Shown here in pieces: positions 8,836 through 45,060 of a stretch of DNA of 45,060 nucleotides. A program made the translations under genes and the position numbers. Below the pieces are notes generated by a model. It ran no database searches, had not been told where the DNA came from, and was given only the letters and a program-made list of their open reading frames with translations. Position 1 is the stretch's first letter. Every line of letters starts with the position of its first letter. Source of the stretch: a virus (lineage: Duplodnaviria; Heunggongvirae; Uroviricota; Caudoviricetes); the IMG/VR virus record IMGVR_UViG_2718217795_000003; one strand, given 5' to 3'.

Positions 8836-10623
8836 TTAAGTCTGAGCCTCACTCTCTTGGCCATAAGTGGCTTGCCAGTATCTCGCCGTAGGGTTCATTA
8901 GAATGTGCAATACAAGCCACCATGCAAAAATGCAGGGAGGTTGGTTGTAGTAACCGGCAGGCACATATCCGTGAGCTAGTTGATTTCGTAAATCACCATA
9001 GATTTTATCTACCAGTAAGGCCTGAAGATTGCCAATTATGTCTACGCCGAAAGCTTCAATAATCAGTGGATTATCTAGTAATCCCTTGAGTCCATTTCGC
9101 TCTTGCGAACCGTCCCCGTGAAGCTGCGATGGTTCCTCACCTTTAATTTTAGCCACATATCTCAGACTATTTTCGAGCTGGGGAATCAACACGTGGCATG
9201 CCGTCATAAAATCTCCATTGAAACCGCAAACCATACCCTTGATGAAAAACTCTTCATGCCCAAACGGGATGAAGGGATGATTGATGAACATATCGCGAAA
9301 AAACGCCTCCGAGATTGGATATTTCATTGTGATCTCATCTGTAGCAGGAATAATTTGCCCAGCTACTGCCAACTCATGGTCGATACGCATTCTCGTCATC
9401 ATTATGGGCCAAATAACTGCCCCATTTGCATCATCAATCCCCAATCCTGCGGGTATGCGAGCAAGTGTCATTCCCTCATGATCAATATGTGTTGATCCAA
9501 ACATCCAAGCTATGCTGTTGGCCTTTTGTTCTATTGCTTGAGCCTTAAGTCTCTCAATGCTGGTTGGCCGACAGACCAGCATCGCAAGTCTGAAAACCAT
9601 ATCAAACAAATCTCTTCCGACTACCCGACTCTTGGCTTGATGGACAATCTCACTAATATCTTGAGGGGGAGACTGAAGGATAGACATCTGGTGACGGGAT
9701 TCGATTTGGTAATCACGCATTTCTTCATACAGCGCAAGACGTTCTATTCGGGTTCCTGGAATATTAGCCAGTGCTTCAATAGCATTCTGCATGCAGGCTG
9801 CCGAAATCATACCGCCATCTTGGAATTTTGACTCTTCCAGATGTGTATCGGCAAGAAGCCGCCAGAATTCAAACTGTGTATCTCTGTCACAGCACCTATT
9901 CGCAATCGGGATTGCGGTTTTACAGGCATCGACGGCAAATGAAAATAATTTTTGAGCCAGATAGTTTTTTGTCAGAAACAGGAGTTCCTGGGCAATAAAA
10001 GATGGCTCACTCACTTTACAGTCGATATCGAGTTGCAGGAGTCGCAGCGGATAAGGTGAATCGCCTTGTTCTCTGGTACGTTCATACTCTGCTAGTAGAT
10101 GTGCCGAAAGCTGATCAAATTCATCCCTGAAATCAGTATGCTTTCGAAAAAAACAACACAGCCTAAGCGCACGCTCTAGGCGTTCTAAAGCACTAACCCA
10201 CGTCCCTTGCGATGTCATAATAGCTATACTGGACGCATAATAAGCACGGACTGCCAGCAAAGGAAAACGGATTCCACCAATTTTACGAACCCAAAGTGTA
10301 TCAGCAATACGAGCTTGAAGTTCGGGTAGCTCTATCGTCGGGCAAAATTGAGAAAGTACCTCCAGCGACAACCCGTTAATGTCATCCGGAATTGCAGATC
10401 TACCTTGGCTGCTTTGAAAGCACGGACCAAATGGTACCTGTGGATTTTCGGGACGAAAGTGAAAACCGCAAATATGGGTTAGCAGTCTTATCTCCGCTCT
10501 TCCATCACCTAGGCTAGAAAGATACTTTGTGATATCAAAGCAGGTAACTGGCAGCTTACTCTGGATTAAGGGGGATAAATCAATAGTGTTAAGTTCGTCG
10601 AGGCTGATATTAATATCGTCCAT
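8836..10623 (-). CDS. Orphan 595-aa protein with C-terminal Rx4H (HEPN-like) motif; candidate defence/abortive-infection effector
   Basis: Long uninterrupted ORF opposite to flanking genes in an AT-richer block; no Walker A motif; motif DLRNQLAHGY (R546..H551, coordinates 8971-8988) about 45 aa from the C-terminus; flanked by 218 bp and about 670 bp of non-coding DNA. Confidence 0.8.
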   Translation of the reverse strand: MDDINISLDELNTIDLSPLIQSKLPVTCFDITKYLSSLGDGRAEIRLLTHICGFHFRPENPQVPFGPCFQSSQGRSAIPDDINGLSLEVLSQFCPTIELPELQARIADTLWVRKIGGIRFPLLAVRAYYASSIAIMTSQGTWVSALERLERALRLCCFFRKHTDFRDEFDQLSAHLLAEYERTREQGDSPYPLRLLQLDIDCKVSEPSFIAQELLFLTKNYLAQKLFSFAVDACKTAIPIANRCCDRDTQFEFWRLLADTHLEESKFQDGGMISAACMQNAIEALANIPGTRIERLALYEEMRDYQIESRHQMSILQSPPQDISEIVHQAKSRVVGRDLFDMVFRLAMLVCRPTSIERLKAQAIEQKANSIAWMFGSTHIDHEGMTLARIPAGLGIDDANGAVIWPIMMTRMRIDHELAVAGQIIPATDEITMKYPISEAFFRDMFINHPFIPFGHEEFFIKGMVCGFNGDFMTACHVLIPQLENSLRYVAKIKGEEPSQLHGDGSQERNGLKGLLDNPLIIEAFGVDIIGNLQALLVDKIYGDLRNQLAHGYVPAGYYNQPPCIFAWWLVLHILMNPTARYWQATYGQESEAQT

Positions 10624-40537: not shown

Positions 40538-42943
40538 ATGGCAGCAGTAAAAATCTCAGGTGTGCTGAAAGATGGTGCGGGAAAACCAATACAGAACTGC
40601 ACTATTCAACTGAAGGCAAAGCGTAACAGCACCACGGTACTGGTGAACACGGTGGCTTCTGAAAATCCGGATGAAGCCGGACGTTACAGCATGGATGTTG
40701 AGTATGGCCAGTACAGCGTCACCCTGCTGGTTGAAGGTTTTCCGCCTTCACATGCCGGGACCATTACCGTCTATGAAGGCTCCAGACCAGGTACGCTGAA
40801 TGATTTTCTCGGTGCCATGACGGAAGATGATGTCATGCCGGAGGCATTGCGTCGTTTTGAGGCAATGGTGGAAGAAGTGGCACGCAACGCCGAAGCCGCC
40901 TCTCAGAGCGCAGCGGCGGCAAAGAAATCCGAAACTGCAGCGGCATCATCAAAGAACGCGGCGAAAACCTCAGAAACGAATGCAGCTAATAGTGCACAGG
41001 CGGCAGCGACCTCAAAGACTGCATCGGCAAACTCCGCGACAGCAGCCAAAAAATCAGAAACCAACGCGAAAAATAGCGAGACAGCCGCAAAGACGAGCGA
41101 AACCAACGCAAAGTCCAGCCAGACGGCAGCGAAAACCAGCGAAACGAATGCCAAAGCCAGTGAAACTGCGGCAAAAAACAGCCAGGTTGCAGCAGCCCAA
41201 AGCGAGAGCGCGGCAGCCGGTTCTGCGACTTCAGCAGCTGGATCAGCAACTGCTGCGGCTAACAGCCAGAAAGCTGCGAAGACGAGTGAAACTAACGCAA
41301 AGTCCAGCCAGACGGCAGCGAAGACCAGCGAAACGAATGCCAAAGCCAGTGAAACTGCGGCGAAAAGCAGTCAGGATGCAGCGGCCCAAAGCGAGAGTGC
41401 CGCAGCCAGTTCTGCAAGCGCGGCGGCTGCTTCTGCCACTGCATCAGCCAACAGTCAAAAAGCAGCAAAAACCAGTGAAACCAACGCAAAGGCGAGCGAG
41501 ACTGCGGCGGCGAACTCGGCGCAAGCATCGGCAGCAAGCCAGACAGCAGCTAAAGCAAGTGAAGACGCAGCCAGAGAGTATGCAAGCCAGGCAGCGGAGC
41601 CGTATAAACAAGTTTTGCAGCCGTTGCCCGATGTGTGGATACCGTTTAATGATTCACTGGATATGATTACGGGCTTTTCGCCATCATATAAAAAAATTGT
41701 TATTGGCGACGATGAAATAACAATGCCTGGCGACAAGATTGTAAAGTTTAAACGCGCATCGAAAGCAACTTACATTAATAAATCTGGTGTGCTGACAGAG
41801 GCTGCCATTGACGAGCCACGATTTGAACGTGATGGCCTGCTTATTGAGGGGCAAAGAACTAACCTGCTAATCAATTCAACAAATCCGACTAAATGGAACA
41901 AGTCGTCAAATATGATCTTAAGTGCATCAGGTGTAGATGATTTCGGATTCCAGTACGCAAAATTTACATTAAAACCAGAAATGGTAGGGCAAATTTCAGC
42001 GATTAACATAGTAACCGTTTCCGGCAGTAAAGGTTTTGATGTAACAGGCGGAGAAAAGTATGTAACCATATCATGCAGGGTGCAAAGTGGCACTCCAAAT
42101 TTAAGATGCCGATTACGATTTGAAAACTATGATGGTTCTACCTACACATTCTTAGGTGACGCTTACTTAAATACGACAGATTTATCTATTGATAAGACGG
42201 GTGGTGCCGCTAATCGCATTACTGCAAGGGCTGTTAAAGATGAAGCAAGCAAATGGATCTTTTTTGAGGCGACAATTAAGGCACTTGATACAGAAAATAT
42301 GATAGGTGGAATGGTTCAGTATGCCCCGGCAAAAGGAGTGGGCACTGGCGCGGATGATTATATTTATATTGCGACCCCTCAAGTTGAAGGTGGGGCGTGC
42401 GCTTCATCGTTTATTATAACAGGCGCATCCCCTGTAACACGCGCCAGCGATATTGTAACGGTCCCCATTTCTCTAAATTGGTGCAATCCCGCTATTAGTT
42501 CATTAGCAGAAGTTAATACCAATTGGGATGAATCGCCAAACAAAGAAGGTAGCGCACGTATTCTTAATATTTCCACTACGGGAGATACAACTGAAATTGC
42601 AGATGAAAGTTATATGTATTTGGGGTATACATCTTTGGGAGCACGCGCAATCATTACAAATGGTAAAGGCACTAAAATAGAATATAAAAGCGTTATAGAA
42701 CGACCAGAGAGAAAAAGCATTATCGGCTTTAGATTCACAGAAAGTCGAGAATTGTGTGTTGTGGTTAACGGTAATATTGGTGCTAAGGTGGTTTCTCCTT
42801 ATAAAAAACACAAATATACAGGAGGCTTCATTAATATTGGTGGTCAATCATCATCCGGCAACCGTCACCTATTTGGACACGTTCGAAATCTGCGTATTTG
42901 GCACAAGGCATTGACTGATGCTCAGATGGGGGAGTCAATCTAA
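40538..42943 (+). CDS. stf: Side tail fibre protein with Ala/Ser/Thr-rich repeat shaft and distinct AT-rich C-terminal (LamG-like) receptor-binding region
   Basis: N-terminus MAAVKISGVLKDGAGKPIQNCTIQLKA... lambda Stf-like; internal tandem repeats; composition switches to AT-rich near 41600; C-terminus ...GHVRNLRIWHKALTDAQM. Confidence 0.85.
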   Translation: MAAVKISGVLKDGAGKPIQNCTIQLKAKRNSTTVLVNTVASENPDEAGRYSMDVEYGQYSVTLLVEGFPPSHAGTITVYEGSRPGTLNDFLGAMTEDDVMPEALRRFEAMVEEVARNAEAASQSAAAAKKSETAAASSKNAAKTSETNAANSAQAAATSKTASANSATAAKKSETNAKNSETAAKTSETNAKSSQTAAKTSETNAKASETAAKNSQVAAAQSESAAAGSATSAAGSATAAANSQKAAKTSETNAKSSQTAAKTSETNAKASETAAKSSQDAAAQSESAAASSASAAAASATASANSQKAAKTSETNAKASETAAANSAQASAASQTAAKASEDAAREYASQAAEPYKQVLQPLPDVWIPFNDSLDMITGFSPSYKKIVIGDDEITMPGDKIVKFKRASKATYINKSGVLTEAAIDEPRFERDGLLIEGQRTNLLINSTNPTKWNKSSNMILSASGVDDFGFQYAKFTLKPEMVGQISAINIVTVSGSKGFDVTGGEKYVTISCRVQSGTPNLRCRLRFENYDGSTYTFLGDAYLNTTDLSIDKTGGAANRITARAVKDEASKWIFFEATIKALDTENMIGGMVQYAPAKGVGTGADDYIYIATPQVEGGACASSFIITGASPVTRASDIVTVPISLNWCNPAISSLAEVNTNWDESPNKEGSARILNISTTGDTTEIADESYMYLGYTSLGARAIITNGKGTKIEYKSVIERPERKSIIGFRFTESRELCVVVNGNIGAKVVSPYKKHKYTGGFINIGGQSSSGNRHLFGHVRNLRIWHKALTDAQMGESI
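41040..41480 (+). repeat. Tandem approximately 189-bp coding repeat within stf
   Basis: AAGTCCAGCCAGACGGCAGCGAA(A/G)ACCAGCGAAACGAATGCCAAAGCCAGTGAAACTGCGGC recurs at 41111 and 41300 (offset 189 bp); protein repeats of KTSETNAK(A/S)S(E/Q)TAAK. Confidence 0.8.
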
Positions 42944-43224
42944 TGAAAGATTTAACACTCAAATTTGCCGACAGGGCCGATTTTTCGGCCTTTATGGGAA
43001 GTATTGGCTATTATAATGACGAGTCGATGCAGGATGATATTCTGATTGATGTGATAGGTAACGTGTACAAAGAAACCGGAGAGCTGACTGAAGATGGCGA
43101 ACCGGTATGTGTTAAGGAAGATGGATATTTTGTAAACGTGCGCATCATTAAGGATACGCAAATATCGTCATTATTCGATGAATACGCGGTTGCTGTTGAG
43201 CATCAACTTCGTGGCTGGATGTGA
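42943..43224 (+). CDS. Hypothetical protein (possible fibre-associated chaperone)
   Basis: 93-aa ORF, ATG overlapping the stf stop; acidic; not Tfa-like. Confidence 0.4.
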   Translation: MKDLTLKFADRADFSAFMGSIGYYNDESMQDDILIDVIGNVYKETGELTEDGEPVCVKEDGYFVNVRIIKDTQISSLFDEYAVAVEHQLRGWM

Positions 43225-43233
43225 GGTAGAGAA

Positions 43234-43938
43234 ATGGCTACATCAACAGTAATTCCGGGAGACATCACCACGCTGAAGGGAGATGTTAGTAAAGCAAAGG
43301 AAGATATTTCCTCTATTAACGGAAAAGTATCAACGCTTCAGACTGATATGGCCAGTGCAAAGCAGGATATCAGCACCAGATACACAAAAACTGAAGTTGA
43401 TAATAAGCTGAAAAACAAAGTGGAAGTGAACGATCTGGAAAGTGGTCGTTATGGCGGAGATTTTTACCCGCTGACTGGCCGTGAAGCGTTTTATTTATGG
43501 GGATTGGGCACAACTACAGCGGCGGCAAATCTTTATCTTAATCCTGACCCTGCAATTTCGTCTGTGCTGCGGTCAACATCGTCTATCCGCTATAAACATT
43601 CAGTAGAGACGATAGATTCAGAGCACGCCGATCTCATTTTCAGGATGCGCCCTGTGTGGTACAGGTCGCAATGCGAAAATGACAGGCGTGACTGGGGATT
43701 CTATGGATTGATTGCCGAGGAAGTTGGAGAAATTGCCCCTCAGTTTGTTCACTGGCGACCAGCCAACGAAGATGATGCACCGGAAACCATTTCCAGCAAT
43801 GGCCTTGTTGCCGAAGGTGTAATGTACGAACGTCTGGTTGTTCCACTGATTCACCATATCCAGAAGCTGACTGAAAGAGTTGATGAACTTGAGTCAGAAT
43901 TAAAGTTGTTATCCGTTTCCCGAAGCGATATCGGATAA
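43234..43938 (+). CDS. Short fibre-like protein with C-terminal intramolecular-chaperone (peptidase S74-like) domain
   Basis: 234 aa; N-terminal coiled-coil; motif S-S-I-R-Y-K (Ser..Arg.Lys spacing as in the SDxRxK autoproteolysis motif of endosialidase-type chaperone domains) followed by GLIAEEV...NGLVAEGVMYERLVVPLIHHIQKL. Confidence 0.55.
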   Translation: MATSTVIPGDITTLKGDVSKAKEDISSINGKVSTLQTDMASAKQDISTRYTKTEVDNKLKNKVEVNDLESGRYGGDFYPLTGREAFYLWGLGTTTAAANLYLNPDPAISSVLRSTSSIRYKHSVETIDSEHADLIFRMRPVWYRSQCENDRRDWGFYGLIAEEVGEIAPQFVHWRPANEDDAPETISSNGLVAEGVMYERLVVPLIHHIQKLTERVDELESELKLLSVSRSDIG

Positions 43939-43948
43939 AGGAGGCGTA

Positions 43949-44242
43949 ATGGATATAACACCTTTCCTTCATGCACTTTGTGCTGTGGCTGCGCAGGTAC
44001 TGGTTGGTCTTTTTACCGGAAACTGGGCTTACGGGGCGATAGCTGGTTGTACGTTCTTCATTGCGCGTGAACATACCCAGGCAGAATATCGCTGGATTGA
44101 AATGTTCGGGCATGGCAAGCGTATGAATATGCCGTGGTGGGGCGGTTTTGATCCGCGTGCGTGGGATGTGGCAAGCCTGATGGATTTTGCTGTGCCGGTG
44201 GTGGCGTGTCTGCTGGTCTGGCTGTTGGTTAATCGTGGGTGA
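43949..44242 (+). CDS. Small membrane protein (possible Cor-like superinfection-exclusion function)
   Basis: 97 aa with two hydrophobic segments; positioned directly downstream of the tail-fibre genes. Functional call is by position only. Confidence 0.45.
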   Translation: MDITPFLHALCAVAAQVLVGLFTGNWAYGAIAGCTFFIAREHTQAEYRWIEMFGHGKRMNMPWWGGFDPRAWDVASLMDFAVPVVACLLVWLLVNRG

Positions 44243-44469
44243 AAAAAGGTGAGCTGTATATGCAACGGAGGAAGAAACCTCGTTGCGGGAAGCCTTGAAG
44301 AAGTATCGGGTGTTGCTGAACCGTGTTGATACGTCAACTGCACAGGATATTGAATGGCCAGCACTGCCGTAGGGTAAAACATATAAATTCTATAATTAGA
44401 TGTATCTTTCCATTTACGGCAAGGAAGGGGGCTTGGAAGACGTAAGGCATCTCACACCGAGATTATTTT

Positions 44470-45060
44470 TTATATGTCAGGTGTCTGAAGTTTTGCTTTG
44501 GCTCTTAAAATGGTTTGCCGCGAGGTTTTGAATTCCCGGGCAATGGCACTTATACTTACACCTGACTTAATCCGTTCGAATACCACCTGTTTCTGTTCTT
44601 CATTTAACACAGGTGGTCGACCAAAACGTTTCCCTGCGCCCCGGGCTCTTACTATCCCGGAATGAGTGCGTTCAAGTAAAAGGTCTCGTTCAAATTCAGC
44701 GACTGCTGAAATTACTTGCATCATCATTTTTCCTGTTGGACTGGTCAGGTCAATGCCCCCCAATGCTAAGCAATGCACTCTGATACCTGTTTCGGTCAGT
44801 TGTTCCACTGTTTTCCTGATATCCATTGCATTACAACCAAGGCGATCCAGTTTTGTCACAATCAATTGATCACCACATTTCAGGCGAGCAAGCAACCGGT
44901 TAAAACCAGGACGCTCACTGGTTGCTGCTGAGCCGCTAATGTGTTCTTCGATTATTTGCTGAGGTTTGATTTTAAAACCTGCACTTTCGATTTCCCGGCG
45001 TTGATTTTCGGTGGTCTGATCCAGCGTTGATATCCGACAGTAAGCAAAAATTCGAGACAT
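44470..45060 (-). CDS. pin: Serine recombinase, Pin/Gin/Hin-family DNA invertase
   Basis: [20 protein letters not shown]... N-terminal resolvase catalytic domain with Ser in YCRIS; C-terminal HTH; starts exactly at the window edge (45060). Confidence 0.9.

Follow-up and report, generated by a model that had tools for sequence, protein, structure and literature searches.

In the Gin, Hin, Cin and Pin switches (Mu G, P1 C and e14 P segments), a serine invertase adjoins tail-fibre genes, and the same neighbourhood is found at one end of a 45,060-nt stretch of caudoviral DNA (IMG/VR record IMGVR_UViG_2718217795_000003; hereafter the window, meaning the whole stretch at its full length), which raises the question of what an invertase does beside a fibre locus that has no obvious invertible segment. 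In this locus the side tail fibre gene stf is followed by three accessory genes, encoding an acidic protein of 93 amino acids (aa), a 234-aa protein with a Peptidase_S74 chaperone domain and a 97-aa membrane protein, and then by pin on the opposite strand. A preliminary description of this DNA had listed these three open reading frames (ORFs) and the Pin-family invertase, and had placed the accessory genes where lambdoid prophages usually carry tfa; the ORF list and Pfam matches bore out the first statement, and a tfa remnant and the annotation of the locus bore out the second. We found that the fibre locus is an ordinary mosaic and the invertase next to it an orphan, that the layout of the locus is real, common and largely explained, and that both of its components, the fibre module and the invertase PinQ, are of known kinds. 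Taken as a whole, the locus probably reflects a replaced fibre module in a Qin-type prophage, with an S74 mini-fibre and an orphan PinQ.

The intergenic stretch between the 97-aa gene and pin is accounted for by the tfa remnant, which the preliminary description had missed. Translation of 44262-44372 aligned with the C-terminus of K-12 TfaQ, the annotation pipeline PGAP calls a tail fiber assembly pseudogene here, and DNA homology to K-12 Qin (98.6%) begins at 44260 and runs through pin to 45060. Instead of the intact tfa that lies 3' of stf in lambda-type Stf/Tfa loci, only the last 36 codons are left, and phage Tritos has a junction identical to that of the window. The gix-like element that had been proposed at about 44268-44290 lies just to the right of this junction; its exact position is 44271-44292, where it codes for ...EEETSLREA... 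within these last codons of tfaQ.

Invertible systems of this type carry two inverted 26-bp sites of 12-2-12 layout with an AAACC..GGTTT core. On a 12-2-12 matrix built from few sites, namely the two e14 pix sites of the K-12 sequence plus the hixL and gixL sequences, true pix, gix and hix sites scored 28-32 bits, and no 26-mer starting in 44255-44284 scored above 0 bits. The best score anywhere in the 45-kb window was 10.6 bits, compared with a mean top score of 11.4 bits for shuffled windows, and the 8 kb beyond were likewise without a site. The core AAACCNNGGTTT occurred at chance frequency, with no copy between stf and ydfK, while an inverted-repeat search returned no meaningful repeat flanking any segment of the region. 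When both strands were searched for the 22-mer, the closest further copy matched at 16 of 22 positions, equal to shuffled sequence, in line with the earlier remark that no convincing partner site could be found. The proposed element was thus rejected as a recombination site, being tfa coding sequence with a matrix score below 0 and no partner.

Comparison with K-12 Qin (stfQ-tfaQ-pinQ) showed that both prophages end in pinQ-ydfK-ynfT, with 98.6% DNA identity there, and that neither has a local invertible segment; in K-12 Qin the stfQ tip is canonical and tfaQ is complete, whereas the window has a replaced fibre module. Between stf and pin, only co-oriented ORFs had family matches, and the minus-strand ORFs were short, unsupported overlaps that include no alternative fibre C-termini or tfa. 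The ORF list and the repeat search therefore agree with the preliminary description that all three accessory ORFs are co-oriented and that no fibre tips are stored in inverse orientation; no invertible segment is present. The locus accordingly differs from Mu G, P1 C and e14 P in having neither crossover sites nor inverse fibre tips nor inversion isoforms.

Inversion isoforms were sought in 5,426 complete E. coli genomes, the sample for all genome counts given here. The query carried 42943-44400 artificially inverted between stf and pin, for which the direct arrangement gives a baseline of 52% coverage and an inversion with its endpoint inside stf would give about 69% and rank first. No genome (0/5,426) exceeded the baseline, and the direct arrangement with pin was present in 281 genomes. 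Because no inverted isoform occurs among these genomes while the direct arrangement recurs, the invertase is an orphan at the window locus.

The invertase itself differs from K-12 PinQ at 2 of its 196 residues and contains Resolvase (PF00239, E 2.5e-36) and HTH_7 (PF02796) domains; among proteins of solved structure it is closest to Gin (E 3e-29), and PinQ is 38% identical to PinE. K-12 PinQ has been shown experimentally to invert the 1797-bp e14 P segment in trans, and database searches by the same authors revealed inversions in e14 only and none in Qin or Rac (Kirigo et al. 2025, PMC12529663); Tritos is named there among the PinR/Q carriers (PMC12529663). By this comparison, the PinQ of the window can presumably act only in trans, on pix/gix-type sites of other prophages. 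The apparent anomaly of the locus is thereby cleared: the invertase is a known trans-acting enzyme, and what had looked like a gix site belongs to a remnant of tfa, the trace of a module swap.

The fibre module proved to be widespread. At least 80% of the 1.3-kb stretch of three accessory genes was found in 722 of the 5,426 genomes (13%), at several chromosomal positions, and the gene order stf, 93-aa gene, S74 gene, 97-aa gene is common to PhiR49_1, IdasGreatGrand, Tritos, HannyBb, PhiR63_1 and PhiR46_1. DNA and protein matches fell into two phage groups, lambdoid phages and many virulent Drexlerviridae, and the lateral tail fibre loci of the latter hold, in synteny, a fibre with a tip like the gene transfer agent (GTA) spike, a protein of about 92 aa and an S74 protein of about 230 aa. 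In PeterMerian (Bas05), genes bas05_0031-0029 are the same three genes in the same order, with amino acid identities to the window of 46% (C-terminal part of the fibre), 45% (acidic protein) and 57% (S74 protein); compared with PeterMerian, the window carries this module on a lambdoid Stf N-terminus and repeat shaft and continues with the 97-aa gene, the tfa remnant and pinQ. To describe the cassette as non-canonical was therefore an overstatement, since Drexlerviridae carry this module as the standard content of their lateral-fibre loci, many lambdoid phages also have it, and 13% of the genomes contain at least 80% of the three accessory genes.

Tritos continues from the same tfa-remnant junction into pin, HannyBb and PhiR63_1 also have a recombinase gene behind the cassette, and PhiR49_1 has other cargo in place of pin, while the Stf tips of these relatives differ, with 18-64% identity over residues 451-800. 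Lateral-fibre loci are known to be highly diverse and may comprise one or several proteins (PMC8594841, the BASEL paper). Our literature search yielded no publication about the phages Tritos, PhiR49_1, IdasGreatGrand or HannyBb, nothing on a stand-alone S74 protein in Drexlerviridae and no experimental work on the accessory genes, and a preprint on engineering of lambda Stf does not cover the module.

Stf begins with its attachment domain (PF08400, residues 5-134, 224 bits), which is followed by an Ala/Ser-rich shaft with tandem repeats at 41038-41509 (periods 21, 42 and 189 nt); these repeats also give rise to long ORFs in other reading frames and on the complementary strand, which are spurious. 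Residues 437-638 matched the NCBIfam GTA_spike_fiber domain (NF048003), the tip matched the RcGTA head spike fibre in sequence (PDB 6tb9, E 5e-5), the last approximately 60 residues gave a sub-threshold match to Laminin_G_3 (ConA/LamG-like), and the whole protein belongs to phrog_1419. Over residues 351-450 (41582-41881), Stf shares 86-94% protein identity with the lateral tail fibre of virulent PeterMerian, the parts on either side diverge far more, and identity over residues 451-800 drops to the range given above even against lambdoid relatives. Stf thus reads as a conserved joint (about 351-450) followed by a hypervariable, lectin-like tip (about 451-803). The tip is presumably glycan-binding and the main determinant of specificity, and the joint looks like a recombination handle for tip exchange between temperate and virulent phages. 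The module occurs commonly among E. coli prophages, virulent T1-like phages also have it, with a joint up to 94% identical, and the locus shows where natural recombination exchanges fibre tips, which is of relevance to the engineering of lambda-type particles with new host ranges.

The 234-aa protein was confirmed to carry the C-terminal S74 intramolecular-chaperone signature that had been ascribed to it. Pfam Peptidase_S74 (PF13884) matched residues 116-172 with 27.2 bits (cut-off 22), and S116 and K121 (SSIRYK), a Ser/Lys pair five residues apart at the start of the domain, were invariant in 33 of 33 aligned homologues. The structure prediction that had been proposed as a check returned the chaperone fold: in the AlphaFold2 (AF2) model, the predicted local distance difference test score (pLDDT) was 80-95 over residues 120-230, with a helix predicted at 11-47, and the top Foldseek matches were the MyRF ICA domain (7dc3, E 2e-5, prob 1.0), followed by the chaperone domains 3gw6 and 3gud (endosialidase, GA-1). 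Autocleavage is predicted at S116, with K121 as partner. In phmmer searches, the chaperone domain matched the C-terminus of PDB chain 8hqz_d, deposited as "L-shaped tail fiber assembly", and the heptad region matched the P22 tail needle gp26 and the repeats of 8hqz_d (TKTEVD-type). Fibres that end in S74 (K1F endosialidase, GA-1 neck appendage, T5 pb1 and 8hqz_d) share their Pfam domain, S...K dyad and predicted fold with the 234-aa protein; unlike these, the window protein is the product of a separate small gene behind a fibre with its own lectin-like tip, and would keep 115 residues after cleavage where known S74 fibres keep hundreds.

Residues 82-115 of the 234-aa protein, the approximately 35 residues before S116, together with the chaperone domain also end longer bona fide fibre proteins, and the protein aligned with the last part (positions 1147-1384) of profile phrog_3299, which has 1385 columns. 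That profile had hinted at a "Rosetta stone" fusion of Stf with the 234-aa protein, an idea that was dropped when no homologue longer than 409 aa was found. Short S74 ORFs share the start MAT.T.IP.DI..LK, and the first 32 aa are 66% shared with the otherwise unrelated 346-aa protein of Tritos and also recur in phrog_4563 and phrog_19752. The 346-aa allele, with an S74 domain of its own (52.8 bits), takes the place of the 234-aa gene in Tritos and PhiR46_1; the two proteins have only the first 20-30 or so residues in common, and the flanking 93-aa and 97-aa genes are 93-98% identical. Because Tritos holds a different allele between nearly identical neighbours, the S74 gene is the swappable unit of the locus, and a two-piece match class with about 48% coverage of the cassette query was seen in E. 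coli genomes.

An alternative is that the 234-aa protein is a free-standing chaperone or assembly cap that acts in trans on Stf trimerisation in place of Tfa. Its gene holds the position of tfa, the chaperone domain makes up more than half of the protein and leaves a mature part of only 115 aa, S74 genes co-occur with GTA-type fibre tips in both Drexlerviridae and lambdoid phages, and the PeterMerian homologue carries a BASEL label to this effect. However, the S74 domains of endosialidase, GA-1 and T5 pb1 act in cis on their own polypeptide and are then removed by cleavage, the same tip and chaperone module closes longer bona fide fibres, a GTA-type stf is found with 92-aa and 97-aa genes but without an S74 gene, and the S74 gene is swapped independently of the Stf tip while its N-terminal peptide stays conserved, as for a docking fibre. 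We therefore regard a trans-acting chaperone as unlikely. A small structural fibre is favoured because tip and chaperone also end longer fibres and because a conserved N-terminal peptide is joined to an exchangeable body, a combination that usually marks a docking fibre subunit.

The two small neighbours were likewise conserved. The 93-aa protein (isoelectric point 4.19) always lies between the fibre gene and the S74 gene, and its family is narrow, with nearly all members short stand-alone proteins; its model (pLDDT 85) is an alpha+beta sandwich with no informative structural neighbours. We infer that it is an assembly factor or adaptor. In the 97-aa protein, residues of about 3-24 and 72-96 form strongly hydrophobic segments and residues 25-39 a less pronounced one; the protein belongs to a PHROG family without assigned function (phrog_1443, E 4e-59). 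That family is large, with 583 homologue clusters and 27 invariant positions, including the loop AREHTQAEYRWI...NMPWWGGFD, and no Pfam, NCBIfam or PADLOC match was obtained, relaxed Pfam scans of 24 homologues included. Homologues with 57-60% identity occur in an apparently non-prophage part of an Aeromonas rivipollensis chromosome and in a Comamonas testosteroni prophage, where the gene sits directly behind a giant gpJ gene; neither context gave a hint of its role. Among the E. coli genomes matching the cassette query, roughly 40% matched by the 97-aa gene only. The protein is predicted to be an accessory inner-membrane factor.

A position directly behind receptor-binding genes would also suit a small membrane protein that the prophage expresses for superinfection exclusion or receptor masking, analogous to Cor or Llp. 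In keeping with this, the lambdoid (temperate) versions have the gene, the one Drexlerviridae locus inspected, that of virulent PeterMerian, lacks it, and it persists in degraded prophages. Nevertheless, no similarity to a PADLOC, Pfam or NCBIfam family was found, the gene is tightly coupled to the late operon with no promoter-like signal above chance upstream, and the protein keeps about 60% identity and 27 invariant residues between Escherichia, Aeromonas and Comamonas, with a non-prophage copy in Aeromonas, a pattern unlike the fast evolution of exclusion proteins. Superinfection exclusion is possible but, because of the very high conservation and the chromosomal copies in Aeromonas, not favoured, and we consider this role improbable.

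These observations suggest how the locus may have arisen and how it may work. Recombination has probably replaced the Stf tip and almost all of tfa, with the right junction inside the 3' end of tfa, and the incoming DNA is probably a lateral-tail-fibre module as used by T1-like (Drexlerviridae) phages. A lectin-tipped Stf would then fold without Tfa. The 234-aa protein may trimerise through its coiled coil, templated by the C-terminal chaperone, and self-cleavage at S116 would leave a mini-fibre of about 12 kDa that could dock on the fibre by its conserved N-terminal 20-30 or so residues, the 93-aa protein perhaps serving as adaptor or assembly factor. The fibre would thereby gain a second distal element that can be exchanged; the 97-aa protein would be an accessory inner-membrane factor, and PinQ inverts nothing locally. 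The three small conserved proteins, namely the 93-aa protein, the S74 mini-fibre and the 97-aa protein, are thus candidates for roles in fibre assembly or host interaction.

A stronger and more tentative version, which we hold to be possible though on balance doubtful, is a two-part side fibre made of a lectin-tipped Stf and a plug-in, self-cleaving mini-fibre, with the 93-aa protein as adaptor and the 97-aa protein as a new envelope factor. If so, this would be a lambdoid phage with two independently exchangeable receptor-binding elements and without Tfa, and the ultra-conserved 97-aa protein would be a new kind of phage or host envelope factor tied to fibre type.

Several points weigh against the reading as module replacement with a structural mini-fibre and an orphan PinQ. 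With only 115 aa and a conserved tip, the predicted mature part would be smaller than is usual for fibres that bind receptors, and residues 62-111 are of low confidence in the AF2 monomer model. BASEL labels the PeterMerian homologue "putative lateral tail fiber chaperone". NZ_CP098219, an icd-site prophage carrying sitABCD, has a GTA-spike-type stf with the 92-aa and 97-aa genes and without an S74 gene, the locus being disrupted by an IS66-family insertion sequence. As for the invertase, the site matrix draws on few sites, and pinQ-like sequence is present in 5,207 of the 5,426 genomes, compared with only 170 that have the complete e14 P region with pinE in K-12 orientation; therefore, most PinQ copies cannot have e14 as substrate.

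It is very unlikely that the cassette is decaying debris, with the 234-aa ORF a C-terminal piece of a longer fibre gene and the small ORFs without function. The alignment to the end of phrog_3299, the adjoining tfa pseudogene and the defective state of the K-12 Qin prophage might suggest as much, but the same short ORFs, with the same start and their own ribosome-binding sites, occur at full length and 57-97% identity in propagated virulent and temperate phages, the length limit on homologues noted above applies here as well, the 93-aa and 97-aa proteins are strongly conserved, and the window prophage is otherwise almost complete in genes. A cryptic switch, in which PinQ acts locally on non-canonical sites and flips the cassette or part of stf, is scarcely credible: P1, where cin adjoins an invertible C segment with alternative fibre genes, offers a precedent for the layout, and the low identity of PinQ to PinE makes another site preference conceivable, but no notable inverted repeat flanks the region, no site reaches chance level on the matrix although PinQ uses the e14 pix sites, the opposite strand offers no alternative coding sequence, none of the genomes carries the cassette in reverse orientation with respect to pin (an inversion ending within stf would likewise have exceeded the baseline), and the PinQ authors saw inversions in e14 only (PMC12529663).

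The features of the locus are collected in the table. The three accessory ORFs have the same orientation as stf and are closely packed behind it without gaps, the TAA stop of stf overlaps the ATG of the 93-aa gene, and AGGAGG precedes the 97-aa gene; for these reasons the accessory genes are the tail end of the late operon. A promoter and terminator scan of 42500-45060 gave no signal above chance.

Features of the fibre locus and its junction with the Qin-type prophage end, in window coordinates
Feature	Position	Strand	Basis or remark
stf, side tail fibre Stf, 803 aa	40532..42943	+	PF08400 at N-terminus
93-aa acidic accessory protein, phrog_1361	42943..43224	+	ORF list, isoelectric point 4.19
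234-aa fibre protein, whole ORF	43234..43938	+	Pfam Peptidase_S74 match
234-aa protein, predicted mature part, residues 1-115	43234..43578	+	conserved N-terminus, coiled-coil stalk, small conserved tip
234-aa protein, S74 chaperone domain, residues 116-234	43579..43938	+	PF13884, dyad, fold
97-aa predicted inner-membrane protein, phrog_1443	43949..44242	+	hydrophobic segments; closes fibre operon in lambdoid versions
tfaQ 3' remnant, last 36 codons and stop	44262..44372	+	match to K-12 TfaQ C-terminus
Putative module-replacement junction	44243-44260		K-12 Qin homology begins at 44260
pinQ, 196-aa serine recombinase	44470..45060	-	Resolvase and HTH_7

The window (1-45060) is a near-complete Qin-type lambdoid prophage of E. 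coli inserted in ydfJ, the site of Qin in K-12, and carries int, xis, exo, dicB/dicC, Q, lysis, terminase, head and tail genes, J, lom, stf and pinQ; at the same site, K-12 Qin is heavily deleted while the window prophage is almost complete. Many RefSeq E. coli chromosomes, NZ_CP042899 among them, match its segment 42600-45060 at 100% identity, and the RefSeq annotation of the identical locus runs from int, adjoining rspB, through terminase, head and tail genes, J and lom to stf, and 3' of the cassette through a "tail fiber assembly protein" pseudogene, pinQ, ydfK and ynfT to a truncated ydfJ. Elsewhere in the window, between the replication genes and hokD, the minus strand at 8836-10623 encodes a 595-aa protein with DUF7380 and DUF4209, which may be a moron or a defence gene.

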